Assembly: GCA_964202455.1 (NCBI GenBank)
Contig: CAXNIJ010000001.1
Span: 46,080-110,079 of the forward strand
Length of the DNA: 64,000 nt
DNA from: Candidatus Pacearchaeota archaeon
GTDB lineage: Archaea; Nanobdellota; Nanobdellia; Pacearchaeales; GW2011-AR1
Direction of reading: 5' to 3'
The notes beneath the pieces were generated by a model. The model searched no databases and was not told the DNA's origin. It was given only the letters and a program-made list of their open reading frames with translations. The translations under genes and the position numbers were made by a program. Shown here one piece after another: positions 9,629 through 31,285 of the stretch. Each line of letters starts with the position of its first letter. The first letter of the stretch is position 1.

Positions 9629-12600
9629 CTAAAACCACTTAGCAATACTTTCTTGTTTTTCTTTCTCTCTTCCAAAAATACTCTCAATATACATTTGATT
9701 AAGCTCCAAACTCTCTCTTAAATATTCACTTACTTGATAATCTCTAGCCAAATCCATTGCAGGTTGCATATATTTCAAAATACTTCCTTCTGAAATAGTG
9801 AATATTAATTTCCCCCCACATTTCAAACATTTACCTACTAAGGGTGGCCTTCTATAGCTTTCATTACATCCCACGCATCTAAATGCTTGCATAGAAAACT
9901 TCCTCAAATTACCACGAGTATCTCGAATAAAATGTCTTTCAATAATAAGTCTGGCCACATCTTTAACATCAACTGCCCTAATTTTTTTACATAATTCCAT
10001 CATAGATTTAACTTTATCTTTCATAGTTGGTAAAGATTTGTAAGAAGAATTCAAAACTCCAAGATTAATATTTGAACAATTATGGGTGAACATTGTTCCC
10101 GTGAATGGGTCTCTTCCGCTTTTTAGTCTAGATTTTACATTATCCATTTTAATTTCTGAAGAATGTTTTCCTTGTTCGGCCAATTGATAGAGTTCTAGTG
10201 GATATGTAGAAAGTTCAAAGTCTAGTATCTGGTCGTCTACGTCTCCCGCGCGAATACGTACATTTAGAACAAGTGGAGCATCTTGCGTCCCTCCTCGGTG
10301 GGCTGGTAAAAACTTACGAGAAAAATTTAGTAGCAAATCCATTAATAGCATCACCGCTGCTTCATCACCATCGCAGTCGCGCCTCATTGCTGCATGCATA
10401 AATGGGCTTGCAAGCATAGTCTGTGTTTTAGAAAATCCTATCAACCTTCCAACTGTCGCGGTACAAATATGTGGGGCAATACAAACAATCAATTTTCCGA
10501 GTAAGTCTTCACGAGTTTTAGCATTAAAATGTCTTGGCAAACCATAAAGTTTTTCAAGCTCATCATCAACAAATTGAGTAATTCTCAAAAAAACATCATC
10601 TGCTCTTTCATCTGGAGAAACAGGGCATGAAGGAAGAATAACATCATGTGCAAACATCTCAAGTATCTGTGATTCGTTCGTCAAAGGCGCGCCAAATATA
10701 TCCTTTTCATAACCTAATGTTTTTAATTTTTCAACACTAGCTCCAATCTCTTCAGGTTTAAAATGGGTAATCGTCATTTCAGTCATGTCATATCTTATAG
10801 TTCCATCTTTGTTGACGTTAAGTTGATACTTGGATCGGAGTAGTCCCTTAGCAAGATGTTCACAACTGTGGTCTTTGCTTGAAGTCCCTCTAATACCTTT
10901 AACTAATGGAACATCTTCGTTACGTAAATGTAGTTGTTTACGTGCAAAATCAAAATGTTGCTTAATATCTATCGATCTTTTTTTGTATTCTACAGTTCTC
11001 TCCCCCTCAATTTCTCCTTCAAGTACAATTCTGTCTGATTTGGGAGCATATCTTAATTTTATACATGAGCCGTTACATTTTTCACATCTGGGATAAATAG
11101 ATTCAATATCGCAAACTTTACAATGATAAAGAGAGAATTCTGCAAAAACACTTCCAACTTCAACCGCTTCTTGAACGCTCCTTAGTCTTCCTCCCTCTTC
11201 ACCTACTGGAAAAAGAACGTGCGGGCTTCCAATCAATTTACGTAGTTTCGATTTCTCCGGCCTACCCATTCTCGCGCCAATATATGTTCCAGATTTATCT
11301 TTTATATTGAAAAATGAAAATTTCCCAATCATTTCTAAAGAAGAGATTTCAGTAAATGTACTCATAATTGCAAGTCGCGATAGAACTTTCTCAGATAATG
11401 ATCCTTCTGAATATTCAATCCCTAAATTAGCAAACAATGCTTCTGCATTTTCGCAAGAAACAATTACATTGTCCAAAAAAACTTGATGTTCGAATCCAAT
11501 CAATTCCATCGCTCTTTTTGCAGAAGCTAGAAGTTCTCTTTCGCTAGAAGCATAAGGTAGAATTAATTTTCCTTCTTTTATTTCTCCTCGCCCAATCCAT
11601 TGGAGAAAATGAAAAAGTTGTTGTATTGTTATTTCTCTCCAAAAAAATATCCATCTGGGATGTAGTGCAACACCATATTGTTTAGAATATTCTTTTGCCT
11701 GTTTAACTGAAACATTGAATGCGTCAAAATCTGCAATGTCTGGCGCGGCCTTCTTTAGTTCTAAACTCCACCATTCTTCAACATATCCTGGTTTAAGAAG
11801 TTCATAATTTCTATTTGCAACATCCCCAAATGAGACAAGTAAATCTCCAAGATATAAAATTTCAACCGTATCTGGATAAATTTTCTGCGATTCTTCATAT
11901 GTCCATAATCTCTTTACGCTTCCATCTTTTAATCTTACAATTGGTCCGTCTATGCTATCGCACAATGAAATGGCGCAGCCTTTTGTTGGTTTCTCTATTT
12001 TTAACTGTGTTCCAAAAGAAAGAAAATCATCAGATATACCCATTGTTGCTGGATGTACACTTGTTGCAGAAAATCCTCCCGTTCGACTCCGACCATATCT
12101 AAATCTAAATCCTCCTGATCGAGATGGATGACTAAATACTGGTCTTCCTGCAACAAGATCTTTAATATATGTGGGGGAAGAATCTACGCTTCCTTTTTCT
12201 CTTTTCTTATGAAGTTCAATATATGCATCCAAAAATTCCCATCCTGTTGCCTTAAATCCCTTTGCTTGTGCTCCCCTAAGTAAACGTAGGCCTTTCTGTG
12301 CCTTCTGTGCAAGACCTTCTGAAAAAATAAGACACATTCCTCCCCTTATGAAATTCGTCTCAACTCGAGGTAAATCCTTATAATTAGAAACTTCTCTATC
12401 TTCACTAGGTTCTCCATGAATCTGAATTGGAATATTTTGTGCTAGAAAATAGATCTCTTCTTCAGTAGGAAGATATTGTAAGTTATTTACTCTTTCGTGA
12501 TAATCGTAATTCTCTGTAACGTATCTCTTTACTTCTTGTTCATCTGGATCAAATTTTGCAAATCCAAAAGTCTCTCGTAAATAATCAATTAACATTAATA

Positions 12601-13081
12601 CTACACAAGAAGCCGTAGTTCCCGCGCTTCTAATTGGGCCAGAAAAATATGCTTGCAAATATTCTTCTCCATTTTTAGTTTTAGCAACTTTAATTTCTGT
12701 AAAACCTTCAATCGGTGAAGATACAACTCCAAGAGTGATGTATGAAAAACCCACCCTTATTCCTGCATCCATGGCTTGAAGAAGACTTTCAAATTTACAA
12801 TATCGCTCTCGAGAAATTTCTTCGGCTATTTGAAATGCCACAGAAATATCAAGTTGCCCATATTGTTTTTCAAGATCAATAATTCGATCAATAATTTTTT
12901 TATCTTGTAACTGGGGATAGATTGTTGAAATAAGTCCTATTGACTTTTCAGCTAAAGTCATTGCAATGGGAATTTCTACATCGCTTACCGGATCTAGTCC
13001 CTGTATTCTAGCTTGTCTAGCAAGAGCAAAACTTTTCTGCACTTCGCTTTCAATATTTTCAAAATGTTGTTCGCTATTCAT
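9629..13081 (-). CDS. polC: DNA polymerase II (PolD) large subunit DP2
   Basis: 1150 aa; catalytic DPBB motif ...MRRDCDGDEAAVMLLMDLL..., C-terminal Cys4 Zn module (CVGCN...CLKCGG); no intein. Its start overlaps the DP1 stop by 8 nt. Confidence 0.95.
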   Translation of the reverse strand: MNSEQHFENIESEVQKSFALARQARIQGLDPVSDVEIPIAMTLAEKSIGLISTIYPQLQDKKIIDRIIDLEKQYGQLDISVAFQIAEEISRERYCKFESLLQAMDAGIRVGFSYITLGVVSSPIEGFTEIKVAKTKNGEEYLQAYFSGPIRSAGTTASCVVLMLIDYLRETFGFAKFDPDEQEVKRYVTENYDYHERVNNLQYLPTEEEIYFLAQNIPIQIHGEPSEDREVSNYKDLPRVETNFIRGGMCLIFSEGLAQKAQKGLRLLRGAQAKGFKATGWEFLDAYIELHKKREKGSVDSSPTYIKDLVAGRPVFSHPSRSGGFRFRYGRSRTGGFSATSVHPATMGISDDFLSFGTQLKIEKPTKGCAISLCDSIDGPIVRLKDGSVKRLWTYEESQKIYPDTVEILYLGDLLVSFGDVANRNYELLKPGYVEEWWSLELKKAAPDIADFDAFNVSVKQAKEYSKQYGVALHPRWIFFWREITIQQLFHFLQWIGRGEIKEGKLILPYASSERELLASAKRAMELIGFEHQVFLDNVIVSCENAEALFANLGIEYSEGSLSEKVLSRLAIMSTFTEISSLEMIGKFSFFNIKDKSGTYIGARMGRPEKSKLRKLIGSPHVLFPVGEEGGRLRSVQEAVEVGSVFAEFSLYHCKVCDIESIYPRCEKCNGSCIKLRYAPKSDRIVLEGEIEGERTVEYKKRSIDIKQHFDFARKQLHLRNEDVPLVKGIRGTSSKDHSCEHLAKGLLRSKYQLNVNKDGTIRYDMTEMTITHFKPEEIGASVEKLKTLGYEKDIFGAPLTNESQILEMFAHDVILPSCPVSPDERADDVFLRITQFVDDELEKLYGLPRHFNAKTREDLLGKLIVCIAPHICTATVGRLIGFSKTQTMLASPFMHAAMRRDCDGDEAAVMLLMDLLLNFSRKFLPAHRGGTQDAPLVLNVRIRAGDVDDQILDFELSTYPLELYQLAEQGKHSSEIKMDNVKSRLKSGRDPFTGTMFTHNCSNINLGVLNSSYKSLPTMKDKVKSMMELCKKIRAVDVKDVARLIIERHFIRDTRGNLRKFSMQAFRCVGCNESYRRPPLVGKCLKCGGKLIFTISEGSILKYMQPAMDLARDYQVSEYLRESLELNQMYIESIFGREKEKQESIAKWF

Positions 13082-14642
13082 TTTTTTCTCTCCGAATCAT
13101 TTCATCTTCATCTCCAAAATCAAGAATTTTTAGTTCACGAGTCTTTAAATTCAGAACTGGAACTTTTGCGGGATCTGGAATATTTCCTACTTTCTCTTCA
13201 AAGGGAGTCTGTCCCTGCCAACAACTTCCAGTAATAATCAAAACACCATTATAATTCTCTATATCTAGTCTGTGTACTTCTCCAGTACATAATACGTCAG
13301 GAACTTCCCCGATAACTAACGGATCTCTATCCACATTTGGAATATATACAACTGAGGAATGTGTGGGGGCAAGATGTCTTCTCTTTAACATGTGTCTCAC
13401 TGCTTTCGCAGGCGTACGATGTGCCTTCATAAGTCTTAATTCGGGAATCTCACTAATAAATGTGTGAATACTTGCGCCATGATACATTAAGACCTTAAAC
13501 TCTTTCTGCCCCTCTATCAATTTAACAAGTGTGGGATTTGTAACTAAAATTAAATTCTCGAGTTCATACATCTCTGCTGCATAACTCTTTGATAAAACGG
13601 GTTGTGGTTCGGCAACTCTCACGGCATCGTGTTGTCCGGGACACATAAACATGGTGATCTGCTTAGGAATTTGTTTTAAATATGAAGCAAGTAATGCATA
13701 TTGTTCTTTCATACTCTTCAATTTCAAAACGTTTTCTTGTCCTGGAAAAATGCCCACCCCATCTACATTATCTCCTACAAAAAAAATATATTTTATTTTA
13801 TGCGCTAGAGGATCGTCTCCTTTTATCCAGTTAAGAAAATTTTGTAAGCTTTTCCCTAAATGTCTATCGCTTCCGCAATGCATGTCCGATAGAAAAGCAA
13901 TACATGTCTCTTCTTCAAATCTAGCTTTATCGGGTATAAATGCGTCTGGATAATAAACATCTTGCACAAAAACCATATCTCTATTACCTGAGCCCTTTAT
14001 AGCGATTACGTCATCAAGTTGAATCTCTCCTGCAATAATTGCAAGCTCTTTTTTATCTACTCGTAGCATTACTGAAATTTCTCCAGTTAAGTCTTCTAAA
14101 ACTAAAATCATATTTTTATTCTTAGTTATTCTTTTTTCTCTTACCATCCCTATGATACTTAGTTGTTGTCTATTGCTTGAAATTTTGCTTATGGACATTA
14201 AACTTGTAAGATCAGGTCTTTGCATTAATATTCTTTGTAATTGTTGATATCTTGCGCGAAAATTCCCCGTAAAATCAGAAACTGTGAGTTTTTTATCAGT
14301 CTTAGTGTCTGCAGTAAATATCTGATATTTGTGTTGAAATTGTTCATCTGGAATTTTAACGACTTCTTCTTTTCGTATTTCTAAACTTATCCCCAAAGTA
14401 ACTATAACATTTTCAAGTGTCGCCTTGTCTTTACCTGCAAGTTTGGCAATTGTTTGTTGTAAATATGAACTATTACTATGTAGAATGGATTTTGTTATCA
14501 TTTTTTGTCCAGAATATCTTTCAAGCCCTTCTAAAAATGTTTTAGCATTCTCCAAATCTCCAAAACTATTTAATAAATCAAATACTTCTCTTTCAAGTAA
14601 GAGTCCACGTGATTTAATGTGGCGTAAAAGTTCTTCATGCAT
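13074..14642 (-). CDS. polB: DNA polymerase II (PolD) small subunit DP1 (calcineurin-like exonuclease subunit)
   Basis: 522 aa; N-terminal OB-fold region, then metallophosphatase motifs (FLSDMHCGS, FFVGDNVDG, GQHDA); operonic with DP2. Confidence 0.93.
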   Translation of the reverse strand: MHEELLRHIKSRGLLLEREVFDLLNSFGDLENAKTFLEGLERYSGQKMITKSILHSNSSYLQQTIAKLAGKDKATLENVIVTLGISLEIRKEEVVKIPDEQFQHKYQIFTADTKTDKKLTVSDFTGNFRARYQQLQRILMQRPDLTSLMSISKISSNRQQLSIIGMVREKRITKNKNMILVLEDLTGEISVMLRVDKKELAIIAGEIQLDDVIAIKGSGNRDMVFVQDVYYPDAFIPDKARFEEETCIAFLSDMHCGSDRHLGKSLQNFLNWIKGDDPLAHKIKYIFFVGDNVDGVGIFPGQENVLKLKSMKEQYALLASYLKQIPKQITMFMCPGQHDAVRVAEPQPVLSKSYAAEMYELENLILVTNPTLVKLIEGQKEFKVLMYHGASIHTFISEIPELRLMKAHRTPAKAVRHMLKRRHLAPTHSSVVYIPNVDRDPLVIGEVPDVLCTGEVHRLDIENYNGVLIITGSCWQGQTPFEEKVGNIPDPAKVPVLNLKTRELKILDFGDEDEMIRREKNE

Positions 14643-14674: not shown

Positions 14675-15907
14675 TTATAGATACAAGGATTTATGAAGCA
14701 TCTCCTCCGCTTTTTCTAGCACTACAGGGGGAAGCATTAATTTAATCTCTCTGGTTCTTCCCTGCCTCCCTTTACTGATTACTCTAGTATTGATGAGGCC
14801 TAGCATATCAAACTCTCCAAGAATATCTGATACTCTTCTCTGTGTAAGAACCTCATTACGCGTCTTCTCACATAAATCTTGATATGCATTATAAACATCT
14901 CCCGTAAATATTTCTTCAACTTCTTTATTTTTATGGAGTGCTACTGTCGCGGCCAAAACTAATTGAAATTGTTTAGGAACTTTCTCAACGATATCTAGCA
15001 TTTTATCTTTTTCTATCTTCTGATTAGCAGTGTCTATATGTTCAACTCTAATTTTTTTCTCATTTTCTCTCTCAGTTAACTCTCCTGCAACTCTCAATAA
15101 ATCAAGTGCTCTTCGAGCATCCCCGTGCTCTCGAGCTGCATAAGCGGCGCATTTTTCTATAACTCCCTCCGCCAAAACTCCCTCTTTAAATGCCTGCAAA
15201 GATCTGATTCTGAGAATATCTTGTAATTGCAAGGCATTATATGATGGAAATACTAATTCTTCTTCACTCAGAGAACTTCTAACTCTTGGATCTATGTTAT
15301 CCATAAATGTCAGACTATTACTAATTCCAATTATACTTATTTGTGCATTCTTAAGTTCCGAATTTAATCTGGTAAGTGTATAAATAAATCTATCTGAAAT
15401 TTTTTTCACAGCTTCATCAATTTCATCAAGAATAATAATCACTACTTGTTTTTTAACATCTATAAGCTCGATAAATTTAAGATATACTTGATCTGTGGGT
15501 AGTCCTGTGGCGGGAATCGTTCCTTTTAGTTCATGAATCATCTCTGCAACGATTCTATACTCTGTGTCCGCCACCTTTTTTAATTTACAATTTACATAAA
15601 TAAATTGCAAATAATTTTCCCCCATCTCTTTTAGTTTTTCAAGGATTTTATCTCGAACATATTGTACACTTAACGTTTTTCCGCTCCCCGTATTCCCATA
15701 TACAAACAAATTACTAACTCTCTCTCCCCTTAAAGCCGGAGCAAGAATCGACGCCACTGCTTCAACTTGCGCCTCCCTATGGGTGATTTGTTCAGGAGTA
15801 TAGTTGGATTGAAGAACGGATTTATTCTTAAATAAATTATTAGATATAAAAGAACTAAAAATTTTATCCAGTTTATTCATCTCTTTTTCACCTTTGAAAA
15901 TAAACAC
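14675..15907 (-). CDS. cdc6: Orc1/Cdc6 replication initiator
   Basis: Walker A VYGNTGSGKTLS, Walker B IIILDEID, sensor regions and a C-terminal winged helix; the presumed origin lies immediately upstream. Confidence 0.95.
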   Translation of the reverse strand: MFIFKGEKEMNKLDKIFSSFISNNLFKNKSVLQSNYTPEQITHREAQVEAVASILAPALRGERVSNLFVYGNTGSGKTLSVQYVRDKILEKLKEMGENYLQFIYVNCKLKKVADTEYRIVAEMIHELKGTIPATGLPTDQVYLKFIELIDVKKQVVIIILDEIDEAVKKISDRFIYTLTRLNSELKNAQISIIGISNSLTFMDNIDPRVRSSLSEEELVFPSYNALQLQDILRIRSLQAFKEGVLAEGVIEKCAAYAAREHGDARRALDLLRVAGELTERENEKKIRVEHIDTANQKIEKDKMLDIVEKVPKQFQLVLAATVALHKNKEVEEIFTGDVYNAYQDLCEKTRNEVLTQRRVSDILGEFDMLGLINTRVISKGRQGRTREIKLMLPPVVLEKAEEMLHKSLYL

Positions 15908-16329
15908 CTTTTCTCATTATAAACATATCGCTTTTCTAAGCTTCATTTCCACTGAAGAAGAAGAAAATATAAAAGAAAAAAGACTAATTCAAACAAATTA
16001 TCTTAAAATAACAGACACCCTCATTTCCACTCGAGAATAATCTTTTTTTAATCTTCAAATCTTCAAATTAACACGAATAAATATAGATACTATATACTAT
16101 ATACTATATACTATATACTATACTATACAAAACTTTATAAAGGAAAAGAAGAGAAAGAAAAATCCCTCTATCCTTTTTAAACATTTTCTTTTTCTCCATA
16201 CGCAACCATGGGGTCACACCCCCCACAACTTCAAGACTCGTCTTCTCACCTCATAATCTTCCAGTCACACGTTCCCAAGAGTAAAAAAAACAGGCAAAGA
16301 TTTATATACAAAAGCTTTCTCCAGTACAT
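15908..16329. promoter_or_regulatory. Candidate replication origin (oriC): two ORB-like boxes plus an AT-rich tandem-repeat DUE
   Basis: TTCATTTCCACTGAAG (15942-15957) and TCATTTCCACTCGAG (16021-16035), same orientation, resemble the archaeal ORB core (reverse strand CAGTGGAAATGAA). A (TATATAC)n tandem repeat at 16086-16128 lies between cdc6 and the next gene. Confidence 0.65.
16086..16128. repeat. Heptamer tandem repeat (TATATAC)x5-6 inside the candidate origin
   Basis: actatatactatatactatatactatatactatactatac read directly. Confidence 0.8.
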
Positions 16330-16590
16330 ATGGGATTAGAAAAGAGGCCGTTAAAAGATATAATTGGAAAATTAGTAGTTACAAAAGAAGGTAGAAGACT
16401 TGGGTTTGTTAAAGATCTCAGTTTCGAAACTCGCACTGGCGAACTTATTCAATTAATTTTAAAAGACCCAACACCATACACTAGAAATCTCAACCTAGAA
16501 CTCTCTCCAAATAAAGAAGCGCTCATTCCTTACAACACAATAATCGCAATAGGAGATTTTGTCGTTATATCCGAAGAAGATTTAATCTAG
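16330..16590 (+). CDS. PRC-barrel domain protein
   Basis: 86 aa; IGKLVVTKEGRRLGFVKDLSFETRTGELIQLIL is a typical PRC-barrel signature. Confidence 0.5.
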   Translation: MGLEKRPLKDIIGKLVVTKEGRRLGFVKDLSFETRTGELIQLILKDPTPYTRNLNLELSPNKEALIPYNTIIAIGDFVVISEEDLI

Positions 16591-21590: not shown

Positions 21591-22361
21591 ATGGATCCCA
21601 TTAAAGAAGCTTTCACGAGGGCAAAACAAGACATTCAAGAACTAAAAGATCAGTTAACCCTATTATCTCAAGAGACTCAGTTTCTTAGGCAAACTCTCGA
21701 TGATATCCTCTTTCATCGGCAGCTCCAGCAAGCTTTTCCATCAGACAGACAGACAGACCAACACTCCAGCACACTTCAAACTCCAAAGTCTACCTCGATT
21801 CCAGCACAAACCTCTCAAAACCCATCAATCAAGCAGGAAACTCCAGCACTCCAGCACATAGATTCCAGCACTCCAGCACAAAATAACCCTTTAAAACCTC
21901 TAAAAGACCAGTTTTCAGTATTCTCCACTGGAAATGAGGGGGTTCCAGCAGACAGACAGACAGACAGACAGACAGACCAGCAGACACAAAATAGCGAGAA
22001 AATCGACTTAGAAACCCTTCATGAGCATACCTTTCAGCACATAACTGACGCTATAGATACCCTAGATCAAGCAAAAAAAGAAGTTCGTTTAAAATTTAAA
22101 CGCTTTACTAAACAAGAAATGGAAGTTTTTGGAGCAATATATTCCTACGAAGAGCGGGGACTTATCGTCGATTACGCTCTTCTTGCGCAAAAACTTGGCC
22201 TGACCGAGAGTTCTATCCGCGATTATGTTCAAAAACTCATCAAAAAAGGCGCACCGATTGTAAAAACTAAGGAAAACAATAAGAGGATCCTTCTTAAAAT
22301 CGATCCTAACCTCAAAAAAATCGCATCTTTACAAACAATTCATCAATTAAGAGAACTCTAA
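21591..22361 (+). CDS. Coiled-coil / low-complexity protein with C-terminal wHTH; contains two (CAGA)n microsatellites
   Basis: 256 aa; DRQTDRQTDQQT encoded by (CAGA)7 at 21949-21976 and (CAGA)4 at about 21742-21758; the C-terminal 90 aa are HTH-like and paralogous to the C-terminus of 22735..23376. Confidence 0.45.
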   Translation: MDPIKEAFTRAKQDIQELKDQLTLLSQETQFLRQTLDDILFHRQLQQAFPSDRQTDQHSSTLQTPKSTSIPAQTSQNPSIKQETPALQHIDSSTPAQNNPLKPLKDQFSVFSTGNEGVPADRQTDRQTDQQTQNSEKIDLETLHEHTFQHITDAIDTLDQAKKEVRLKFKRFTKQEMEVFGAIYSYEERGLIVDYALLAQKLGLTESSIRDYVQKLIKKGAPIVKTKENNKRILLKIDPNLKKIASLQTIHQLREL

Positions 22362-22504
22362 TTCGTTTAACCGAACAACTTCTATAAAAGCTCTAGCTGA
22401 CACTCACTTTCAAAATTTTTTTCTTTTACCATCGCTGTTTTTTTCATAACTCTTACTCTCAAGTCATTCATTTTTGGTCAAAATCCCCCTTTTTGCACTT
22501 TTTC

Positions 22505-22805
22505 TCCTCTCACTTTTTGACCGCATCAGGAAGATCGTTCATTTGCTCCCATCTTCCCTCACTTTTGGATACTTTCCTTCACTTCTGGAAGGTTTTTTAT
22601 ACGTCGAGAATCAAATATTCTCGATCGTACTCAAAATCTCCTCACTTTTGGAAGGTTTTTGATACCGAAAAAGGCATAAACCGGTAAAAAATGAGAACCA
22701 CAACTCTCACTTTTCACTATTTTTGCTCATTTTATCATGAAACTTCGTTTAATCTATCATTAACACGAACTCGCTTACTTTTCCCAACCCTCACTTTTGC
22801 GTATT
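22505..22805. repeat. Iteron-like array of at least 6 copies of CTCACTTTTGG, including a 24-bp imperfect direct repeat
   Basis: Copies near 22510, 22557, 22578, 22640, 22709, 22790; cacttctggaaggttttttatac / cacttttggaaggtttttgatac are 63 bp apart; lies between convergent wHTH genes. Confidence 0.6.
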
Positions 22806-23376
22806 TTGCGAGTTTTTCCCTTATTTCTTCAGGTACAAAGACCCTCTTTTTCCCTGTTTTCTCACTTATTTCCTCTAGTAGTCCTTCACTCTTCTGTTTT
22901 ATAGCATTTATCTGTCCTCTTATAGTAGATTTCTCTTTACCCAAAAGCAAGGCTAAATCTTCATAACTTAACTTCAAATCGCTATTCATCAGAGTCATTA
23001 TCAACAGTCTTTCATTTGCGGTTAAACCTTTCAAAATATCATAAATATTGCCTGTTTGAACAGGCATCTGAACAGCTTTTTCAACACCATAATCAGCTGT
23101 CTGTTTGCCTAAAACAGGCAATTTTTCAAACAACTGTTGATGTTTTTCATCATTTTTCAAAGATTCAACTTCTTCATGCAAAGCACCAAGATCAGTTTTA
23201 ATCGTCGCTATTTCAGATTTTAATGAAGAAAGTAAAGAAAACACCTGTTTGTCTTGTCCATCAAGGTGTTTGATCCACTTTCCAACCACATCAATATCAT
23301 TTTTAACTGCAGAGAAGCCTTGGCGAATTTCATCACTAGAATTATTTTCCTTCTTTTTGAATAACCAGTTGAACAT
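22735..23376 (-). CDS. Coiled-coil + C-terminal wHTH putative regulator
   Basis: 213 aa; C-terminus LTANERLLIMTLMNSDLKLSYEDLALLLGKEKSTIRGQINAIKQK has the same architecture as 21591..22361. Confidence 0.45.
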   Translation of the reverse strand: MFNWLFKKKENNSSDEIRQGFSAVKNDIDVVGKWIKHLDGQDKQVFSLLSSLKSEIATIKTDLGALHEEVESLKNDEKHQQLFEKLPVLGKQTADYGVEKAVQMPVQTGNIYDILKGLTANERLLIMTLMNSDLKLSYEDLALLLGKEKSTIRGQINAIKQKSEGLLEEISEKTGKKRVFVPEEIREKLAKYAKVRVGKSKRVRVNDRLNEVS

Positions 23377-24358
23377 ATCTATATTACTCGTTCGAGTATT
23401 TATAAACCTTTCGGTATCTCCTCACTTTATCGTCGATAAATAGACGTCAAAAATCAACAAAAAGTCTGACTAAAAATAGAGAAAAACACTCTAAAACACC
23501 AAACAACATCATTCAAACACCTTAGATGCTTAGTCAAACACTCAACATCTTACTTTAAACACCCGTTCAAACATCCCCAAACACCTTCAACCTAGATCAA
23601 ATTTTACCAATCATCGTCGACAAATTTTGGCAAAACCCCTAAACTAATCTATGGGGCAAAAAGTCTACACTTTACTATTGTTCAAATATCTGCCTTTTTT
23701 CTCTCAAAGAATAAAGAGTTTCATAGCCCGCTTTTTAATAAACTCCTTGCTTCCAAAGCAGAATTTCAAAAAAATTCATCCAGATATAAGTTTTTAAGTT
23801 TTCACAAGACCTCAACTCTATGAATCTTCCTTAACGTTGACCTTTAGACTCAGAATATCAGATATATCTTCAAATTTTTAGGGGAACAAGTACCAAAGAT
23901 CTACAAAAAGCACTAGATTATCACCAAAGCAGCCGTTCTTTCATAACAACACTTCCCCTTAGCGTTGACCTAGTCTCCAAAACACTACATGTTCGTGTTT
24001 AGAAGAGGTTCTTTCACAAAGAAACGCTCTTTCAAACATTCCGACCATCTCAAAACACTCATCCAAACATCAATTTTAATCTAGATAAACCCAAAGAGTT
24101 AAATACTTCCACAGGTTTAATCAATTATGCCTAAAAAAGAAGCAGACCTCACAGCGATTTTATCCATTATAGCAGGTTTTATCATCCTAATCTGGCCCAA
24201 CATACTAGGCATAGCAGTAGGTCTTTTCCTTCTAATCACTGGAATACTAGATTTAGCAAGAAAAACCAAGTGATTTCTCCAGTTTAATTCTTTTCCTTTC
24301 GCTAGTAATTTTCAGCATAAAAGAAACCGCAAGATTTATATACTTCTTACGTATATCC

Positions 24359-24700
24359 ATGTGTATGAAAATAAGTAAGGAAGATATTATCAGGATAGGA
24401 AAAGGTTTTGGAGGAGAACTGCGAAACGATGCAAGTATAGAGTTTGCTTTGGAAAAGCAGGAAAATGTCAAACTCGGAGAGTATAAGAAGCTAGCTTATT
24501 TGATTAGAGCAATAGTAATTGATCATCCATTCACAGATGGAAACAAAAAAACGGCTGCATACATCGTTTTTGTTTTCGCCGAACAATTCAATAAACAAGT
24601 AGATCTTGAGCTTATTAAAGAGCAAATGATTTCAATTGCAAGTAAAAACATCAATAGTATTCGAGCAATCGAGGAGAGACTAAAAAATGTCCTTAACTGA
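24359..24700 (+). CDS. doc: Doc/Fic-family toxin
   Basis: HPFTDGNKKTA matches the Doc motif HxFx(D/N)GNKR; 113 aa. Confidence 0.8.
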   Translation: MCMKISKEDIIRIGKGFGGELRNDASIEFALEKQENVKLGEYKKLAYLIRAIVIDHPFTDGNKKTAAYIVFVFAEQFNKQVDLELIKEQMISIASKNINSIRAIEERLKNVLN

Positions 24701-24905
24701 ACAAGAAATACAGAGAATATTCAAAAAATACAAAGAAGTATTTGAAGAAATGGAGCACTATGACCAAACCCGCGAAAAGCTTTGGGAAAAGAAACGTATC
24801 GACATCACACTTACTCATCGTCTCATTAAGAAGTTAAAGGCCCTAAGCAAACAAACAGGCAAACCCATTTCTCATATTATAGAGGAAGCAGTTACTAAGT
24901 TATAG
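24687..24905 (+). CDS. Ribbon-helix-helix (CopG-like) putative antitoxin partner of Doc, encoded downstream of the toxin
   Basis: 72 aa; RIDITLTHRLIKKLKALSKQTGKPISHIIEEAV is RHH-like; 14-nt overlap with doc. Confidence 0.45.
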   Translation: MSLTEQEIQRIFKKYKEVFEEMEHYDQTREKLWEKKRIDITLTHRLIKKLKALSKQTGKPISHIIEEAVTKL

Positions 24906-25067
24906 TCCCAGCCAACACTTCCAAACACCTGTTTGCCCCGTTTATCGTCTATACATTTTCTAATCCCAACACCTACCAATACCTCTGTTTTCTCCTCCTT
25001 TCCCACCCATTCCCCCTCCATTTTAAACACCTATTTGCCCGTTTGTCCTAAACCATAACTTCAAACC

Positions 25068-25096
25068 AAGTGAGGCGCGAAGCGCCGAACGCGCCC
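25068..25096. repeat. GC-rich twin-hairpin element gtgaggcgcgaagcgccgaacgcgcccga (family B core), copy 1
   Basis: Identical 29-mer at 26899-26927; both are preceded by aacttcaaa and followed by a TATA-like box and a gene start. Confidence 0.7.
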
Positions 25097-25137
25097 GACC
25101 ACCTAAATATATAAAAATCGTTCTAAGAATAAGAGTT

Positions 25138-25467
25138 ATGGACGAAAAATCTCCCATCGAATTAATTCTCTTAGAATACCGGTGCAGAGATTTCGACGAT
25201 CGTACAATTATCTTAAGAATTAAGAATGCTCCCTTTGGGGCGAGCAGAATTCAGCAAGTTGCATGGGGCGTGAGTCCAAGTTTTCCTGCAGGAAATCCTC
25301 CTGTTTTCCCAATATACTATGAAGTGACAGGGTTCAGTCAAGAAGGAAATAGTCGTGTGATGAGATTGCCCCATAGCGGAGAACTAGTAGATTACAAGCC
25401 CTCATTTGAAGAAGCATTCAAGAGAGCATATGCGTTAGCAAAGGAACGGGCTTTGGAATATACCTGA
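25138..25467 (+). CDS. Hypothetical cassette protein
   Basis: 109-aa ORF preceded by the family-B repeat and a TATA-like box. Confidence 0.4.
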   Translation: MDEKSPIELILLEYRCRDFDDRTIILRIKNAPFGASRIQQVAWGVSPSFPAGNPPVFPIYYEVTGFSQEGNSRVMRLPHSGELVDYKPSFEEAFKRAYALAKERALEYT

Positions 25468-25717
25468 CCATTTTCACATGCTCCAGAATATGATCCTTCA
25501 AGAGCACACATATTTGATAGAACCTCTTTCGGAAATCTTTCCCCCTCAGATTCAGACGATCCTTGTCATAAGCTCTGGTATACACCTATTTGGTATCCTG
25601 AAATATAATTTAGATGTTCGCACAAGCTACATTAACCGAAGTATTGGCACATTTTAAGGGATTTCAGAGTGTTTTTTGAGGCGAAAGAGTTAAATAGACT
25701 CAGAAAATGAATAAATC

Positions 25718-26080
25718 ATGACTTGGACTACCCTCACTATCTCAAATAATAAAGAGTATGCCTTATTAGCAGAACAATATTTTAAGGAAGATCGTCGTAG
25801 GGAACCTGGAGAATATACGTCTTCAGGTTGGTTAAGAAGGCAAGCGAGATTAGGGATCTATAGTCTATTAATGAATTGCTTATCCGATCCGACTCATTTT
25901 ATGAAAGTAACTCAATTTATCAATTCAAATTCGATTGGAGAAGTAGTTAGATTGGTCGAAACGTTTAGAAATGGTCATCAAGAGAATTTAGCGACATATT
26001 TCGGTTGGAGTGATTTAAGTACAATTCAAAGAAAGATAGACTTAAGGAATGAGTTACTTGCTAAACTGTTTCAAGCGTAA
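25718..26080 (+). CDS. Hypothetical cassette protein
   Basis: 120-aa ORF followed directly by the intercassette repeat. Confidence 0.4.
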   Translation: MTWTTLTISNNKEYALLAEQYFKEDRRREPGEYTSSGWLRRQARLGIYSLLMNCLSDPTHFMKVTQFINSNSIGEVVRLVETFRNGHQENLATYFGWSDLSTIQRKIDLRNELLAKLFQA

Positions 26081-26158
26081 TCTTCCTCCCTTTTCTTAAA
26101 ACTTTCAGCATAAAGGAAAAACCGAAATATTTATATATCAGTTATACATCGAGTATAC

Positions 26159-26392
26159 ATGGCAGAAGAATCAACTATCCTCTTAGACAAGAAAGTAATT
26201 GAGCAACTTAAAGAAGCGAAAGAATATCCTCGCCAGACATACAATGAACTTCTTAATAAAATGACTCATCTTTTCATAACTCTCAAAAAACAAAAAGAGA
26301 GACAATACGACCGTTTTCTCTTTGAAATACAAAAGAAAAAGATGAGAGAACTCTGGGATAATGAATATGATGAAGTTTGGGAGAAAGTATAA
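26159..26392 (+). CDS. Putative antitoxin (same family as 259..465 and 28400..28618)
   Basis: TILLDKKVIEQLKEAKEYPRQTYNELLNKM; overlaps the MazF ORF by 32 nt. Confidence 0.6.
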   Translation: MAEESTILLDKKVIEQLKEAKEYPRQTYNELLNKMTHLFITLKKQKERQYDRFLFEIQKKKMRELWDNEYDEVWEKV

Positions 26393-26687
26393 GTTTGGCG
26401 ACGTTATTTTAGCGTCGGTCCAGTATACAGATACATCGGAGATTAAAACTCGTCCTGCACTGGTGCTCTTTGAAGAGCATGAAAATATTGTAATTGCAGG
26501 GATAACGAGTAATCCTCATATGCAAGGTATTTCTCTTACTAAACAAGAAGGAATGGTCGCAGAGAGTATTGTTAAACTGAATTATATTATGACTCTCACA
26601 GAATTAATGGTCAAGAAGTATCTCTTCACGATTTCAGAAGAGAAAAAACAACAAATTAAGGATGAATTTTGCAAGAAGCTACAATAA
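26361..26687 (+). CDS. mazF: MazF/PemK-family toxin (endoribonuclease)
   Basis: GDVILASV...TRPALVL...IVIAGITSN matches the PemK/MazF fold signature; 108 aa. Confidence 0.85.
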   Translation: MNMMKFGRKYKFGDVILASVQYTDTSEIKTRPALVLFEEHENIVIAGITSNPHMQGISLTKQEGMVAESIVKLNYIMTLTELMVKKYLFTISEEKKQQIKDEFCKKLQ

Positions 26688-26964
26688 AATTTGAATCCAA
26701 ACCCTTACGAAAAGATCATGAACGGGGATTCATTGTTCCAGACAAGCTTACATCTAGCTTGGATCTTAAAGGAGGTGAAAAATTGCTTTCGCCCTCTTGA
26801 AATATTAGGGATTTTTAGAGGTTGTTTTAAACAGCTGTTTGTTCGTTTAATCATTCAAAAACCTGTCCCCTTTCCTAGAACAATAACTTCAAATCTCTGT
26901 GAGGCGCGAAGCGCCGAACGCGCCCGATCGAAAGAATTAAATATATCGGAGCATACAAATAGAT

Positions 26965-27183
26965 ATGACTTATCAGGTAGTTGTGGGAATTCTATTATCT
27001 GTTCTTGGTCTTCTTGTTTGTATTTTCCCAAAGTCATTTTCGGGGTTCCTTAGTACTAGTAAAAATATTTTGGGAAGAAATTTTAAAGAAAAGTTGGGTG
27101 AAAGCAAAGGAAAAATAATTACGATTGTCTGGAGTATAATTATCTCAATATTGAGTCCAATTGCCATCTTTACATCGAAATAG
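26965..27183 (+). CDS. Small membrane protein, hypothetical
   Basis: 72 aa with 2 TM helices; preceded by family-B repeat copy 2 plus an AAATATAT box. Confidence 0.3.
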   Translation: MTYQVVVGILLSVLGLLVCIFPKSFSGFLSTSKNILGRNFKEKLGESKGKIITIVWSIIISILSPIAIFTSK

Positions 27184-27370
27184 AATCAATTTAGAAGATA
27201 ATTTGTAAAAGGGCGCATAATCTACCTTAGACGAACCTTTAGAGCTCTTTTTCGCCCCAAAAGTTCGCTTTTTTATTTGTTGACATTAACTTTGTTGTAT
27301 TGCCCTATAAACAACGATCTTTTTGAGTTTTGAGGGAAAGATTTAATAATATTCATCAAGCCAGAGAGAT

Positions 27371-27736
27371 ATGGACAGTGCACCATTTATACATCCTCAA
27401 CCAGACTTAGGAAAATATCTTGCAAGTTTTGTAGGCGGTACCAGCAGATATCGAGAAGCACGTTCTTCCGATAACAACGTTGTTGTGGGAGAATTTATGA
27501 TTGAACATTTGAAAAGAAAATTGCCTCTAGAACAGCTTGAGGCAATAGTACGAGAATATTTGCTAAGAAGGGGATTCCTAGATGTCACAGAAGGATCAGA
27601 AGAGACGACATCAGATATCAATTCAAGCTCTCGAAAGTATTTTCATCCCACCTATTCTCAGACTCATAATTGGAAGGTATTAGTCAACGTTCCTGGTTCT
27701 CGTAAAGACATTTCGGTAAGTTGGTCCATTTACTAG
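27371..27736 (+). CDS. Hypothetical cassette protein
   Basis: 121-aa ORF; intercassette repeat immediately downstream (27770-27808). Confidence 0.4.
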   Translation: MDSAPFIHPQPDLGKYLASFVGGTSRYREARSSDNNVVVGEFMIEHLKRKLPLEQLEAIVREYLLRRGFLDVTEGSEETTSDINSSSRKYFHPTYSQTHNWKVLVNVPGSRKDISVSWSIY

Positions 27737-27769
27737 AAAAGCAATATTAGTGCCTGAATATTATTAACT

Positions 27770-27808
27770 TCTCTTAAAACTTTCAGCATGCTCAAAGAGT
27801 TCGTTTAA
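27770..27808. repeat. Intercassette repeat family A (TCTCTTAAAWC-tttcagca-N-caaagagttcGTTTAA); this is the reference copy
   Basis: Related copies at 24296-24328, 26093-26124, 28277-28316, 28339-28368, 28886-28924, 29432-29465 and partially at 113-124. Confidence 0.65.
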
Positions 27809-27870
27809 TTATATAAAAAACTATTCTTCCCAACACAAATATTTATATATCTCTAGAATACCTCAATATA

Positions 27871-28266
27871 ATGGGAAAAACACAAAGACTTCGACATATT
27901 CAGCCAACTCATGGAGACAGGAATTATTTTATTTATGATGATGACAAAGGAAATGAGGTTTTTGCCTTTCCAACACCCATAGGTTCTCCAACAATATTTT
28001 CTGCCAGAGACGAGAATGGAGAGTCATTTAATGAGGCTGCAGTTAGAAGCGAATTAATTTCCCGTGCCAGGTTTATAGAAAGAACAGAAGGATTACATCT
28101 TAGAACCATCAACTCATATACTGCTATTCGCGTACATTTTGGAAATTTTCCCACTATAAAGACTAGTGATAGGCCCTCTTTAGAGGTAGATTTAGAAATA
28201 TATGGTGTACAATTTTACCAATCCACATTTTTAGATCGCAAATCTACTAAAAAAAGACCAGCGTAA
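27871..28266 (+). CDS. Hypothetical cassette protein
   Basis: 131-aa ORF; TATA-like box about 30 nt upstream; repeat downstream. Confidence 0.4.
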   Translation: MGKTQRLRHIQPTHGDRNYFIYDDDKGNEVFAFPTPIGSPTIFSARDENGESFNEAAVRSELISRARFIERTEGLHLRTINSYTAIRVHFGNFPTIKTSDRPSLEVDLEIYGVQFYQSTFLDRKSTKKRPA

Positions 28267-28399
28267 TCTTTCTGCTCTCTCTTAAATCTTTCAGCACATT
28301 CAAAGAGTTCGTTTAATATAAACTTAATCTTCTTCCTTTCTCTTAAATCTTTCAGCACAAAGGAAAAGTTTATAAACTATAACAAATTATATAATTGAT

Positions 28400-28618
28400 A
28401 TGGAACAAACAACTATTCAAATAAGTAAAACTCTCTTGGAACAGCTAAAGTTACGAAAGATGACTAAAAAAGAGAGCTATGAAGGAATTATTTGGGATTT
28501 GCTTGAAGATACAATGGAGTTATCCGATGAAACAAAACGCGCGATCGAAGAAGGAAGAAAGCAGATACTTGAAGAAAAAGTTGTTTCTTTTGAAGATTTG
28601 AAACGAGAGTTCCAGTAA
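28400..28618 (+). CDS. Putative antitoxin (third paralogue)
   Basis: TIQISKTLLEQLKLRKMTKKESYEGIIWDLLED; the stop lies 1 nt before the RelE start. Confidence 0.6.
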   Translation: MEQTTIQISKTLLEQLKLRKMTKKESYEGIIWDLLEDTMELSDETKRAIEEGRKQILEEKVVSFEDLKREFQ

Positions 28619-28619
28619 T

Positions 28620-28874
28620 ATGCACTACCAGATCTCTTTTTCTGAACAAGCAGCCAACTTTATTAGAAAATTAGACAAATCTCAAAGAGAACGAATTTTC
28701 GCCGTTCTCGAAAGAATCAAAATTCGTCCAGAAGATTTCGTTGAAAAACTAGTTGGAGAACAGGGGTACAAGCTCCGCATAGGAGATTATCGATTATTTT
28801 TAGATATTCAACAGAATACTATTATTATCTTCGTCGTAGAAGTCAGGCATCGAAAAAATGCGTACAAAAAATAA
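28620..28874 (+). CDS. relE: RelE/StbE-family toxin
   Basis: 84 aa; ...KLRIGDYRLFLDIQQNTIIIFVVEVRHRKNAY is a RelE-like C-terminus. Confidence 0.8.
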   Translation: MHYQISFSEQAANFIRKLDKSQRERIFAVLERIKIRPEDFVEKLVGEQGYKLRIGDYRLFLDIQQNTIIIFVVEVRHRKNAYKK

Positions 28875-28920
28875 TACTCTCCCTTTCTCTTAAATCGTTC
28901 AGCATCTCCAAAGAGTTCGT

Positions 28921-29199
28921 TTAAACTGCCCAATAGTCTGGAATATCAAATCCATCATCATTCAGTGATTTTTTTAATTCAGGATCATTCCATTCACAAA
29001 CAATAAGCTGAAACTGAGAAATGGAAGGTGAATAAAGACAACGAACATCAGCAAGAACAGCATTTCTACCTCTACTTTCTAAAAAAAGCAAAAAATCTAG
29101 ATTTGTTTCATATATTTTACCTTTAGTATTTTTAACAAAAGCCAAAGAAAAAGGAACGTCTCCACTAGAATCAGCAAGATACGGATTTTCATCCCCCAA
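28921..29199 (-). CDS. Hypothetical protein. The frame continues upstream to ATG 29406 through an in-frame TAA (29296-29298), so this is a possibly disrupted gene of about 160 aa.
   Basis: Translation of the minus strand gives MKEVHEDYLLLPGMSLFKKCNVLVYNCKNIRDFVDN*DRIETTSAPFFSRAKEYNGLAIINF...; an overlapping ORF 29097..29309 in another frame is probably spurious. Confidence 0.3.
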   Translation of the reverse strand: MGDENPYLADSSGDVPFSLAFVKNTKGKIYETNLDFLLFLESRGRNAVLADVRCLYSPSISQFQLIVCEWNDPELKKSLNDDGFDIPDYWAV

Positions 29200-29731
29200 T
29201 ATTGCACGAAGATTATTTGCAAAGTTGATAATTGCGAGCCCATTATATTCTTTGGCGCGACTAAAGAAGGGCGCAGAAGTTGTTTCAATTCTATCTTAAT
29301 TATCAACAAAGTCTCGAATGTTTTTACAATTATACACTAGAACATTACATTTTTTAAATAGAGACATTCCAGGCAATAAAAGATAATCTTCGTGTACTTC
29401 TTTCATAATAACTTTACACAAATAGATGTTTTTAAAACTAACCAATATTCAAAGGGTTCGTTTAACTCCAATTTCCTCCTTCTCTGCCTCTGAATTTCAC
29501 TCAAGATTCATCTTCCATAACCCTTAAATACCAAGGTAATTTAGGTATATTAACACCTCTTTTCCCCAGAAGAGGACGTTTCATCACCTTTTTGATCGAT
29601 GGAGCCTCCTCTTATGGGTTTAATATTCTACGATTATACCTGCAAACAGCTGTTTACGAAACGTTTTTAAACAAACATTTTCTTAAACAGCTGTTCAGAA
29701 GGAAAAATATTCTTTCTCGCAAAAAATTACA

Positions 29732-31285
29732 ATGGAACTCGCTATATCGAAAGTAAGTTTAAAGCAACACGAAGGGAAAACTATTTCCCTAGCTGGAATT
29801 ATAGATAGCGTCGCGCAAACAACAGGTCCAACACTCTTTTCTCTTATAGACGGATCGGGAACACTCATGTTAAAAGGATTTGACGGCGCAGGAGTGAGAG
29901 CATTTCCACAAATAAAAGAAGGAGACACTGTAAAAACTATGGTTCAAGTCAAGGAATTTCAAGGTTCTTTAGAAGGGGAGATAATACGAATAACAAAGCT
30001 TGAGGGCCCGACGTCAGAACAACTTAGAAAAGACATAGAAGCAGAAGAAAGAAAACGAGCAACAGTTGTACCAATACCTTTCTTAGTAAAAAGCCAAATA
30101 CTCGATAAATTAAAAGAGAGATATATCCAGGCAGCTACAGAAATTCGTCTTGCAGTTGTGAAAAACAGACCAATTATAGTTCGTCATCACAATGATTGCG
30201 ATGGATACAGTTCAGGATATTCATTAGAAAGAGCAATTATTCCTCTAATTATTAAACAACACGGTGGAGGGAAAGCTCCTTGGGAATATTTTACACGTTC
30301 TCCCTCGATGGCGCCATTCTATGAGATTGAAGATTCAATAAAAGATACTGCAAATTCTCTTCGTGATGTCGCAAAATTCTCAAATAAAATGCCTTTAGTA
30401 GTTATTGTAGACACAGGTTCAGGTTCAGAAAGTCTTTTAGGCATTAGACAAGGAAAAATTCACGGGGCAGATTTTATAGTAGTGGATCATCACTTTTTCG
30501 AGGAAGACGTAACTTCTCCAGAAGTTTTAGTCCATGTAAATCCATTTGTAGTCGGAGAAGATGGGGCGAAGTTTTCAGCAGGAATGCTTTGCACAGAACT
30601 TGCTCGTTTTATTAATCCAGAAGTAATGGTTGATCATCTTCCAGCTTTATCTGGAATGGCAGATAGAATCGATAATCCAACGGTAATTACAGAATATCTT
30701 AAAATTGCAGAAAAGAAAGGATATAATAAAGAGTTATTAGAAGACATTGCATCACTTATAGATTATGTAAGCACAAAGCTAAGATTTATGGAAGCACGAG
30801 AATATATCGAAGTGGTTTTCGGCGACCCAATTGACAAACAAAAAGCGCTTGTTTCTCTTATGAATCCATTTATCAGGACTATGCAAAAACGCGGACTTGA
30901 AATTGCAAAGTCTACAGTCAAGAGAGAGAAAATAGGTCAATGTACCTTACAGTTACTTTTTGTAGAAGAAACATTTTCAAGAAATGCCTATCCCAAGCCA
31001 GGACAAGTTGTGGGAATGCTTCATGATTTCTTTCAAGAAAAAGAAAAGAACAAAAATGTAGTATCTATCGGAGTATTAAGCGATCTTGTAACTATTCGGG
31101 CAACAGAAGAGTCAAAATTCATAGTACACGATTTTCTTTCAGTTCTTCAGAAAAATGTTCCAGAGGCATTTCCAGAGGGTGGAGGACATAAAAGTGCAGG
31201 CGCACTTAGATTTGTTCCAGCTCAAAGAGAGAAGGTATTAGTCGCGTTAAGAACATACCTAACAAAGGTCCAATCAGGAAAGTAA
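29732..31285 (+). CDS. DHH-family phosphoesterase with N-terminal OB-fold (RecJ/Cdc45/GAN-like nuclease)
   Basis: 517 aa; DHH motifs (VRHHNDCDGYSSG; VDHHF) and a DHHA1-like C-terminus (GGGHKSAGA). Confidence 0.65.
   Translation: MELAISKVSLKQHEGKTISLAGIIDSVAQTTGPTLFSLIDGSGTLMLKGFDGAGVRAFPQIKEGDTVKTMVQVKEFQGSLEGEIIRITKLEGPTSEQLRKDIEAEERKRATVVPIPFLVKSQILDKLKERYIQAATEIRLAVVKNRPIIVRHHNDCDGYSSGYSLERAIIPLIIKQHGGGKAPWEYFTRSPSMAPFYEIEDSIKDTANSLRDVAKFSNKMPLVVIVDTGSGSESLLGIRQGKIHGADFIVVDHHFFEEDVTSPEVLVHVNPFVVGEDGAKFSAGMLCTELARFINPEVMVDHLPALSGMADRIDNPTVITEYLKIAEKKGYNKELLEDIASLIDYVSTKLRFMEAREYIEVVFGDPIDKQKALVSLMNPFIRTMQKRGLEIAKSTVKREKIGQCTLQLLFVEETFSRNAYPKPGQVVGMLHDFFQEKEKNKNVVSIGVLSDLVTIRATEESKFIVHDFLSVLQKNVPEAFPEGGGHKSAGALRFVPAQREKVLVALRTYLTKVQSGK

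Follow-up and report, generated by a model that had tools for sequence, protein, structure and literature searches.

In Sulfolobus, oriC1 comprises three origin recognition boxes (ORBs), of which the inverted ORB2 and ORB3 flank a duplex unwinding element (DUE); an essential motif that is not an ORB also lies in the DUE (PMC12141716). When the ORBs on either side of a DUE are of opposite polarity, the Orc1 initiators point their lid and winged-helix (wH) domains at each other, and MCM is loaded in between (PMC6742236). In Pyrococcus abyssi and Pyrococcus furiosus, the gene order is oriC-cdc6-dp1-dp2, and two 34-bp ORBs are accompanied by many 13-bp mini-ORBs. Replication in DPANN archaea has so far been known solely from gene inventories and one skew-based prediction, and no paper linking origin recognition boxes with DPANN archaea was found in the literature searched. 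In the DPANN genome of Candidatus Forterrea (Diapherotrites), the origin was placed beside cdc6 on the strength of Z-curve and cumulative GC skew, and ORB anatomy was not described (PMC5905446). The locus reported here also adjoins cdc6 but differs from that of Candidatus Forterrea in having a clear ORB anatomy and no local skew inversion. It was found in a 64-kb stretch of DNA (the window; 34% G+C), in which positions 15935-16216 are most probably a chromosomal origin of the oriC1 type from a Pacearchaeota-like DPANN archaeon, combined with the control region of the initiator gene. As judged from sequence, the origin is of the canonical Orc1/ORB kind, and none had been described for its lineage in the literature searched. 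Its anatomy is ordinary; the parts worth following are the missing skew inversion and an intragenic ORB that is conserved at synonymous sites.

Three ORBs and an Orc1-1 initiator

The locus consists of ORB-B and ORB-A on the minus strand, a 156-bp AT-rich spacer and ORB-C on the plus strand. ORB-A and ORB-C are of opposite polarity and together span 204 bp; their dyad halves face the spacer and their G-strings point away from it. The elements between ORB-B and ORB-C are as follows.

15935-15958, minus strand: ORB-B, promoter-proximal, TCTTCAGTGGAAATGAAGCTTAGA; 20.2 bits, no G-string; contains box 1
16013-16036, minus strand: ORB-A, full ORB with a GGGTGT G-string, TCTCGAGTGGAAATGAGGGTGTCT; 26.3 bits, the top match of the window; contains box 2
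16037-16192, no strand: predicted DUE, the 156-bp spacer between the inverted ORBs; 80% A+T
16067-16078, minus strand: conserved non-ORB motif ATTCGTGTTAAT, family consensus GTTCGTnTTAAT; columns 171-183 of alignment A1
16087-16128, no strand: heptamer tandem array, ATACTAT x5.1 on the plus strand (TATAGTA in the cdc6 sense); Tandem Repeats Finder (TRF) score 72, 100% matches
16134-16141, no strand: conserved TTTATAAA block abutting the heptamer array; invariant columns in A1
16173-16182, minus strand: conserved TATA-like block GTTTAAAAAG, family consensus TTTAAA(A/T)A; A1 invariant columns T47, T48, A49, A51 and A53
16193-16216, plus strand: ORB-C, inverted ORB with a GGGGT G-string, TCTCCATACGCAACCATGGGGTCA; 21.5 bits

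The original prediction, made from the same DNA, had described a canonical archaeal origin with two same-orientation boxes and a neighbouring tandem repeat. Both boxes are present, each inside an ORB. Box 1 (TCATTTCCACTGAAG, 15943-15957; originally started at 15942) and box 2 (TCATTTCCACTCGAG, 16021-16035) were located to within 1 nt, share one orientation and lie 78 nt apart; no other site on either strand of the 64 kb matches the degenerate 15-mer TCATTTCCACTSRAG exactly. The total, however, is three, as the inverted ORB-C had been overlooked. Boxes and repeat favour an origin, but those two boxes alone are not a canonical arrangement; the locus is canonical because ORB-C places ORBs of opposite polarity around the unwinding element. 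With this addition, the locus has every sequence-level hallmark of an Orc1/Cdc6-dependent archaeal origin that was examined in silico (at least two ORB repeats, an adjoining gene of the Orc1-1 clade, opposite-polarity ORBs flanking an AT-rich DUE, and a module conserved in relatives), and the conservation strengthens the case. From this anatomy we infer that Orc1 binds the boxes and that replication initiates at the locus.

Box statistics were obtained with a 24-nt weight matrix (consensus TTTCCATAGGAAATGAAGGGGTGG) refined on the upstream regions of relatives alone, with the window excluded. In the window, the matrix finds four sites above 20 bits, three of which fall within 282 bp upstream of cdc6 and the fourth at 21922-21945 (22.4 bits), against a chance expectation of 0.017 such sites per window (60 first-order Markov simulations). 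Besides these four, one 12.8-bit match at 7326 is the only site above 12 bits, and nothing else exceeds 13 bits. The P. furiosus ORB1, ORB2, ORB3 and mini-ORB oligonucleotides, which bind Cdc6 in gel shifts (PMC1904270), score 21.3, 20.8, 18.3 and 15.6 bits, whereas a binding-defective P. furiosus mutant and a control score -3.8 and -10.5. The ORB consensus (a TTCCA-N3-GAAA dyad with or without a G-string), of which an origin of this type has at least two repeats, is represented here by three sites of 20.2-26.3 bits. Box 1 also shares 13 contiguous nucleotides (TTCATTTCCACTG) with P. furiosus ORB1 and ORB2, which together with the matrix scores bears out the earlier assignment of the boxes to the archaeal ORB core.

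Two further candidates near the boxes were rejected. The G/C hairpin of the original prediction (about 16209-16223) exists as a palindrome, ggggtcacacccccc, at 16210-16224, but its 5-bp stem is weak (-4.1 kcal/mol, z = -1.9) and is not conserved as a hairpin in relatives; it is not an independent element but the G-string of ORB-C together with some neighbouring C residues. A degenerate inverted box at the start of the divergent PRC-barrel gene (ctccagtacat, 16320-16330) agrees at 11 of 15 positions by eye, and it was treated as chance because it scores below 12 bits and overlaps a predicted leaderless start site.

The initiator encoded beside the boxes is, by its sequence, of the Orc1-1 clade and not Orc1-2. 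Its best sequence matches in the PDB are Sulfolobus solfataricus Orc1-1 (2qby_A, 2.7e-100) and Aeropyrum pernix ORC1 (2v1u_A, 3.4e-90), the two Orc1 initiators crystallised on ORB DNA. The recognition helix and wing of the wH domain (TQRRVSD...GRxGRT) are nearly identical to those of 2qby_A. In the 2007 crystal structures, the wH domain reportedly reads the dyad and the initiator-specific motif (ISM) of the AAA+ domain reads the G-string.

The arrangement resembles the Orc1-1-dependent oriC1 of Sulfolobus/Saccharolobus, of which Aeropyrum pernix ori1 is a relative. Both contain three ORBs in a 2+1 arrangement, with an inverted pair around an AT-rich DUE (130 bp for ORB3-DUE-ORB2 in S. islandicus, compared with 204 bp from ORB-A to ORB-C here). 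Both adjoin an orc1-1 gene, and the oriC1-type initiators 2qby_A and 2v1u_A are the closest solved homologues of the protein described here. In both, the ORB combines a dyad with a G-string and a conserved non-ORB motif lies inside the DUE. Unlike in Sulfolobus oriC1, the DUE is built on a period-7 tandem array; its spacer motifs (GTTCGTnTTAAT, TTTAAAWA and TTTATAAA, with the heptamers) are putative counterparts of the Sulfolobus ucm element. The gene for UBP is reported as confined to Sulfolobales and Desulfurococcales (PMC12141716).

The likeness to Pyrococcus, which the original prediction had drawn from the gene order, is partial. The order oriC-cdc6-DP1-DP2 is the same, the ORB core is identical over 13 nt, and inverted long ORBs flank AT-rich DNA. 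In contrast, there are just three ORBs and no mini-ORB cluster, and the distance from G-string to GAAA is ~4 nt instead of the ~9-10 nt of P. furiosus ORB1 and ORB2. Pyrococcus has a Cdc6-bound ORB cluster inside dp1, whereas the matrix scan above 12 bits found no ORB cluster inside dp1 or cdc6 here. Pyrococcus oriC also has a clear skew switch, which this locus lacks.

The predicted unwinding element and its conservation

The spacer is the third least stable 150-bp stretch of the window by nearest-neighbour stability (z = 3.45), and the least stable 40- and 60-bp duplexes in the 64 kb fall at 16077-16140, in the heptamer array (z = 3.9). The tandem repeat had been correctly placed next to the boxes, with its start within 1 nt. 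According to TRF, the array is perfect over 16087-16122, continues as a period-5 variant to 16128, and is the sole perfect array of at least five copies reported in the window. These stability values are consistent with the earlier suggestion that the AT-rich repeat stretch serves as the unwinding element, for which melting is predicted.

Three conserved blocks accompany the array. The GTTCGTnTTAAT motif, the TTTATAAA block and the TTTAAA(A/T)A block all lie in the spacer, the last of them 2-20 nt from ORB-C, and the spacer motifs include GTTCGTGTTAAT and TTTAAAAAG. As a genome-wide site, GTTCGTnTTAAT was rejected, since it is not enriched across the window (4 matches against 3.8 expected). 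An exact copy of GTTCGTGTTAAT occurs at 22759-22770, just inside the 3' end of a gene at 22735-23376. Between ORB-A and the GTTCGTGTTAAT-like motif lies a perfect tandem repeat, (AATCTTCA)x2.4 at 16050-16068, which is unconserved in relatives.

Related loci were recruited with the Cdc6 protein, which gave 31 loci with 52-90% Cdc6 identity to the window, labelled nearly all as metagenome-assembled genomes (MAGs) of Pacearchaeota, Woesearchaeota, Nanoarchaeota or Aenigmatarchaeota. In about 25 of the 31, the same elements occur in the same order and spacing. In the cdc6 sense, the shared order is the PRC-barrel gene and its TATA box, ORB-C, TTTAAA(A/T)A, a T-rich tract, TTTATAAA, the period-7 array, GTTCGTnTTAAT, ORB-A, ORB-B, a TATA box and the ATG. 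In the Pacearchaeota-like clade, the positions relative to the ATG are nearly constant (ORB-B at -71 to -86, ORB-A at -151 to -165 and ORB-C at -317 to -390). ORB-B homologues are present in ~20 relatives, and ORB-A and ORB-B are ~79 nt apart. At the position of ORB-C, one relative (L013) carries a perfect canonical box, TCTCCAGTGGAAATAAGGGTGTGT (29.8 bits). The plainest textbook layout is found in the more distant DPANN loci L023-L029, where ACCCCTTCATTTCCATTGGAAA and TTCCACATGAAATAAGGGGGT point towards each other from the two sides of an AT-rich tract. The three-ORB family consensus is TTTCCAnnGGAAATGAAGGGGTG.

Period-7 TA-rich arrays (TATATTA or TATAGTA) occupy the same position in at least 11 relatives; the tandem repeat of the window is therefore an unusually clean local form of a conserved feature. 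Across 417 kb of related loci, 72 of 89 matrix matches above 19 bits fall in the 620 nt upstream of cdc6, a count that is partly circular in that the matrix was trained on upstream regions, whereas the scarcity of matches elsewhere is not. High-scoring sites in these loci occur almost solely upstream of cdc6 and in a winged helix-turn-helix (wHTH) gene described below. One Aenigmatarchaeota locus carries a second high-scoring ORB pair (L025:8159-8240, 28.4 and 31.3 bits) 5.3 kb downstream of the cdc6 start, which may be a second ORB cluster or origin.

These features suggest how the locus might work. The Orc1-1-type protein from the neighbouring gene would bind the three ORBs as monomers. Because ORB-A and ORB-C are of opposite polarity with their dyad halves beside the spacer, the initiators on these two boxes would face each other across the spacer and could load MCM onto it. 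If the origin fires, the heptamer array (16087-16128), which is rich in TA steps and is the window's least stable duplex, would melt first. Autoregulation of the cdc6 promoter by Orc1 is the probable role of ORB-B, which lies ~21 nt upstream of the TATA box. The three blocks conserved in the spacer (GTTCGTnTTAAT, TTTATAAA and TTTAAAWA) might be bound by an accessory factor and would then be analogous to, although not homologous with, the ucm/UBP pair of Sulfolobus.

Together with its ~25 relatives, the locus provides a family-wide origin model that comprises a three-ORB consensus, fixed spacing, a heptamer-repeat unwinding element and three spacer motifs. With this model, DPANN genome assemblies can be oriented and checked, Orc1 binding assays can be designed, and one can ask whether lineages outside Sulfolobales have an accessory origin factor, a question posed in PMC12141716.

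Strand composition and alternative explanations

Several observations weigh against an active bidirectional origin at this locus, and strand composition is the principal one. A long-used bidirectional origin with replication-linked skew should flip the sign of the skew at the origin. Skew analysis had been named in the original prediction as a check, and locally its outcome is negative: GC, amino/keto (MK) and third-codon GC (GC3) skew keep one sign across the locus. The analysis covered ~84 kb of a contig that is at least 339 kb long, namely the window and 9-10 kb past each end (L036 1-9010 and L034 1-10000). Neither the cumulative GC nor the cumulative MK disparity has an extremum at 16.1 kb; both curves are monotonic there. 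For GC3 skew, chosen as the measure that removes most coding bias, the plus strand is negative to the left of the locus in both gene orientations (strand effect -0.29 +/- 0.05, 14 of 15 genes) and negative to the right as well (-0.45 +/- 0.07, 8 of 8 genes). The 9-10 kb past each window end mostly keep the same sign, more weakly, and 16 relatives are likewise one-signed (cdc6-sense GC3 skew ~+0.30 upstream and +0.34 downstream). A cumulative AT-skew minimum at 15948 was rejected as origin support, being explained by the switch in gene orientation. Apart from composition, the central dyad of ORB-C differs from that of the canonical core (TCCATACGCAA instead of TCCAGTGGAAA), and the three ORBs are not joined by a Pyrococcus-like swarm of mini-ORBs. 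A conserved oriC and Cdc6 are also dispensable in some archaea, such as Thermococcus kodakarensis (PMC5663688).

The strand asymmetry of the genome is thus real, but it is not inverted at the locus. Throughout the window, the minus (cdc6-sense) strand is G/T-rich and the plus strand C/A-rich in genes of both orientations; this bias peaks within ~8 kb of the origin, without inversion there. The objection is weakened by two observations: only 18 of 224 archaeal genomes display the classical skew pattern (PMC7111523), and gene orientation to the right of 16.1 kb (26 genes on the plus and 14 on the minus strand) fits a rightward fork. For this clade, the absent inversion means that origin calling or assembly validation by GC skew would mislead; if genome-wide, it points to an unusual replication mode.

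Such a mode would be explained if the locus were a genuine, conserved Orc1-binding replicator at which replication directions do not diverge, which we regard as unlikely. Replication could then be unidirectional or strongly asymmetric, origin and terminus could lie close together, or initiation could occur mostly elsewhere or in another mode (e.g. recombination-dependent). The one-signed GC3 and keto/amino disparity on both sides of the locus, with GC3 behaving likewise in 16 relatives regardless of gene orientation, speaks for this explanation, as does the dispensability of the origin and Cdc6 in T. kodakarensis noted above. A precedent exists in small-genome candidate phyla radiation (CPR) bacteria (Microgenomates), where one-signed whole-chromosome GC disparity led the authors to propose an adjacent origin and terminus or unidirectional theta replication (PMC7143001). 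However, the disparity was examined over ~84 kb of the contig, skew is a weak witness in archaea given its frequency there, and the 26 to 14 gene bias conflicts with the leftward fork inferred from the G/T-rich minus strand. The inverted ORB pair is moreover the geometry for symmetric MCM loading. The narrower proposal that in Pacearchaeota the strong strand-wide disparity, uninverted at a canonical ORB-DUE-ORB origin, reflects unidirectional or highly asymmetric replication from an Orc1 origin, or a side-by-side origin and terminus, is if anything a shade less probable still. If true, it would be an archaeal counterpart of the one-signed skew of some CPR bacteria, and conserved outlying ORBs, such as that in the wHTH gene, might take part in the asymmetry.

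It is considerably less plausible that the boxes are transcriptional operators alone, through which Orc1 or another winged-helix protein regulates the divergent cdc6 and PRC-barrel promoters with no replication start. The fixed ~21-nt distance of ORB-B from the cdc6 TATA box in all relatives would suit operators, Orc1 paralogues such as Orc1-2 can regulate transcription (PMC9738581), and an ORB inside a gene 5.8 kb away indicates that ORBs are not confined to the DUE. Yet this explanation leaves unaccounted for the inverted ORB-A/ORB-C pair, whose members enclose the least stable DNA of the window at a distance of 156 bp, as well as the conservation of the heptamer array and the spacer motifs. 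The initiator belongs to the Orc1-1 clade rather than to Orc1-2, and operator and origin roles coexist at known origins. A chance or low-complexity artefact, in which AT-rich intergenic DNA happens to contain fortuitous repeats, has next to no probability. The region is indeed AT-rich and intergenic, and loose searches with three mismatches find about as many matches as in shuffles (11 against 8.2 expected), but chance is refuted by the three sites above 20 bits within 282 bp where 0.017 per window are expected, by positional conservation across ~25 genomes and by recognition of the validated Pyrococcus ORBs. The reading of the locus as an oriC1-type origin with the initiator's control region is preferred.

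The outlying ORB and the flanking genes

Genes, promoters and the fourth ORB outside the origin module are the following.

9629-13081, minus strand: polD large subunit DP2; Pfam PolC_DP2_N, PolC_DP2_central and PolC_DP2_cat, E-values 7e-75 to 1.5e-105
13074-14642, minus strand: polD small subunit DP1; Pfam DNA_pol_E_B (3e-18), Metallophos, OB-fold
14675-15880, minus strand: orc1/cdc6 initiator gene, Orc1-1 type, product of 401 aa; Pfam Cdc6_C and Cdc6_lid, NCBIfam TIGR02928 (406 bits)
15917-15924, minus strand: predicted cdc6 TATA box GTTTATAA within the conserved block CGATATGTTTATAA; putative promoter
16301-16308, plus strand: predicted TATA box of the divergent PRC-barrel gene, TTTATATA, 22 nt before the ATG; putative function
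16330-16590, plus strand: divergent PRC-barrel gene; Pfam PRC (3e-9); syntenic with the origin in most relatives
21922-21945, plus strand: outlying ORB TCTCCACTGGAAATGAGGGGGTTC; 22.4 bits; inside a coiled-coil/wHTH gene (21591-22361), 5.8 kb from the origin

The outlying ORB is near-perfect and includes a G-string, and the part of the syntenic coiled-coil/wHTH gene in which it lies is a variable linker. Pyrococcus offers a precedent for intragenic ORBs in its dp1 cluster, whereas the outlying ORB described here is in a gene on the other side of the origin. The encoded peptide is S-T-G-N-E-G-V-P, which reads S(T/I)GNxGVP across orthologues. Four orthologues (L009:47, L010:774, L013:496 and L019:168) keep DNA that scores 20-23 bits, and the codons TCC, GGA, AAT, GGG, GTT and CCA are invariant among five orthologues. 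In three orthologues, residues with at least four synonymous codons have identical codons at 5 of 6 motif positions but at 3 of 22 positions elsewhere (Fisher p = 0.003). The true intergenic ORBs, when translated, give this peptide too, so the protein motif looks like a consequence of a DNA site being conserved, and the converse, an ORB that is a mere by-product of a conserved peptide STGNEGV, was rejected on the basis of the codons, which are invariant there and not elsewhere. This suggests that selection acts on the DNA site rather than on the peptide. The outlying ORB is followed by a (CAGA)9.5 microsatellite at 21949-21986, which encodes DRQTDRQT. In a 373-bp gap between two convergent wHTH genes (22400-22810), at least four copies of CTCACTTTTGG occur, with 1.6 expected in the whole window.

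Upstream of cdc6, the TTTATA columns of the TATA box are invariant in A1, and the box always lies ~21 nt downstream of ORB-B. At the PRC-barrel promoter, the TATATAAA block is kept in relatives. The gene order cdc6, DP1, DP2 on the minus strand, as originally proposed, is corroborated by Pfam. The longest cdc6 open reading frame (ORF) covers 14675-15907, and gene callers extend the gene to a GTG at 15907. The alignment with relatives begins at residue 10 (MDKLD), which makes the ATG at 15880 the probable start; the intergenic region would therefore be 449 bp instead of the 422 bp (~420 bp originally) obtained with the GTG. A database look-up with the ATG-start product returned no match, the recorded product being the GTG-start version. 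Comparison of the intergenic region with Rfam revealed no family that accounts for it, only a meaningless mir-5 match at E = 0.75, and a non-coding RNA was rejected on this basis.

In two Nanoarchaeota MAGs (L016:4906-7227 and L021), the Orc1/Cdc6 gene is split near Walker A by a ~350-aa intein with a LAGLIDADG homing endonuclease (Pfam Intein_splicing 1e-23, LAGLIDADG_3 3e-17), and the ORBs of these loci lie at the normal distance from the true ATG.

The window sequence was also found on a 339,087-bp metagenomic contig (ena:ERZ27280223:k141_458911), with the origin module at about 277.4-277.7 kb, and the source replicon is a DPANN chromosome, neither a plasmid nor a virus. The same contig carries a second PRC-barrel paralogue ~20 kb from the first (L036:5182-5490). 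The sole deviation from the one-signed GC3 skew in the window is a run of small plus-strand ORFs at 24300-31300, where the skew is near zero or positive. This run contains a Fic domain (24359-24700), with an adjacent RHH_3 gene in the contig annotation, and is probably an integrated mobile element or island. A tRNA-Arg(tcg) gene is located at 34173-34260.

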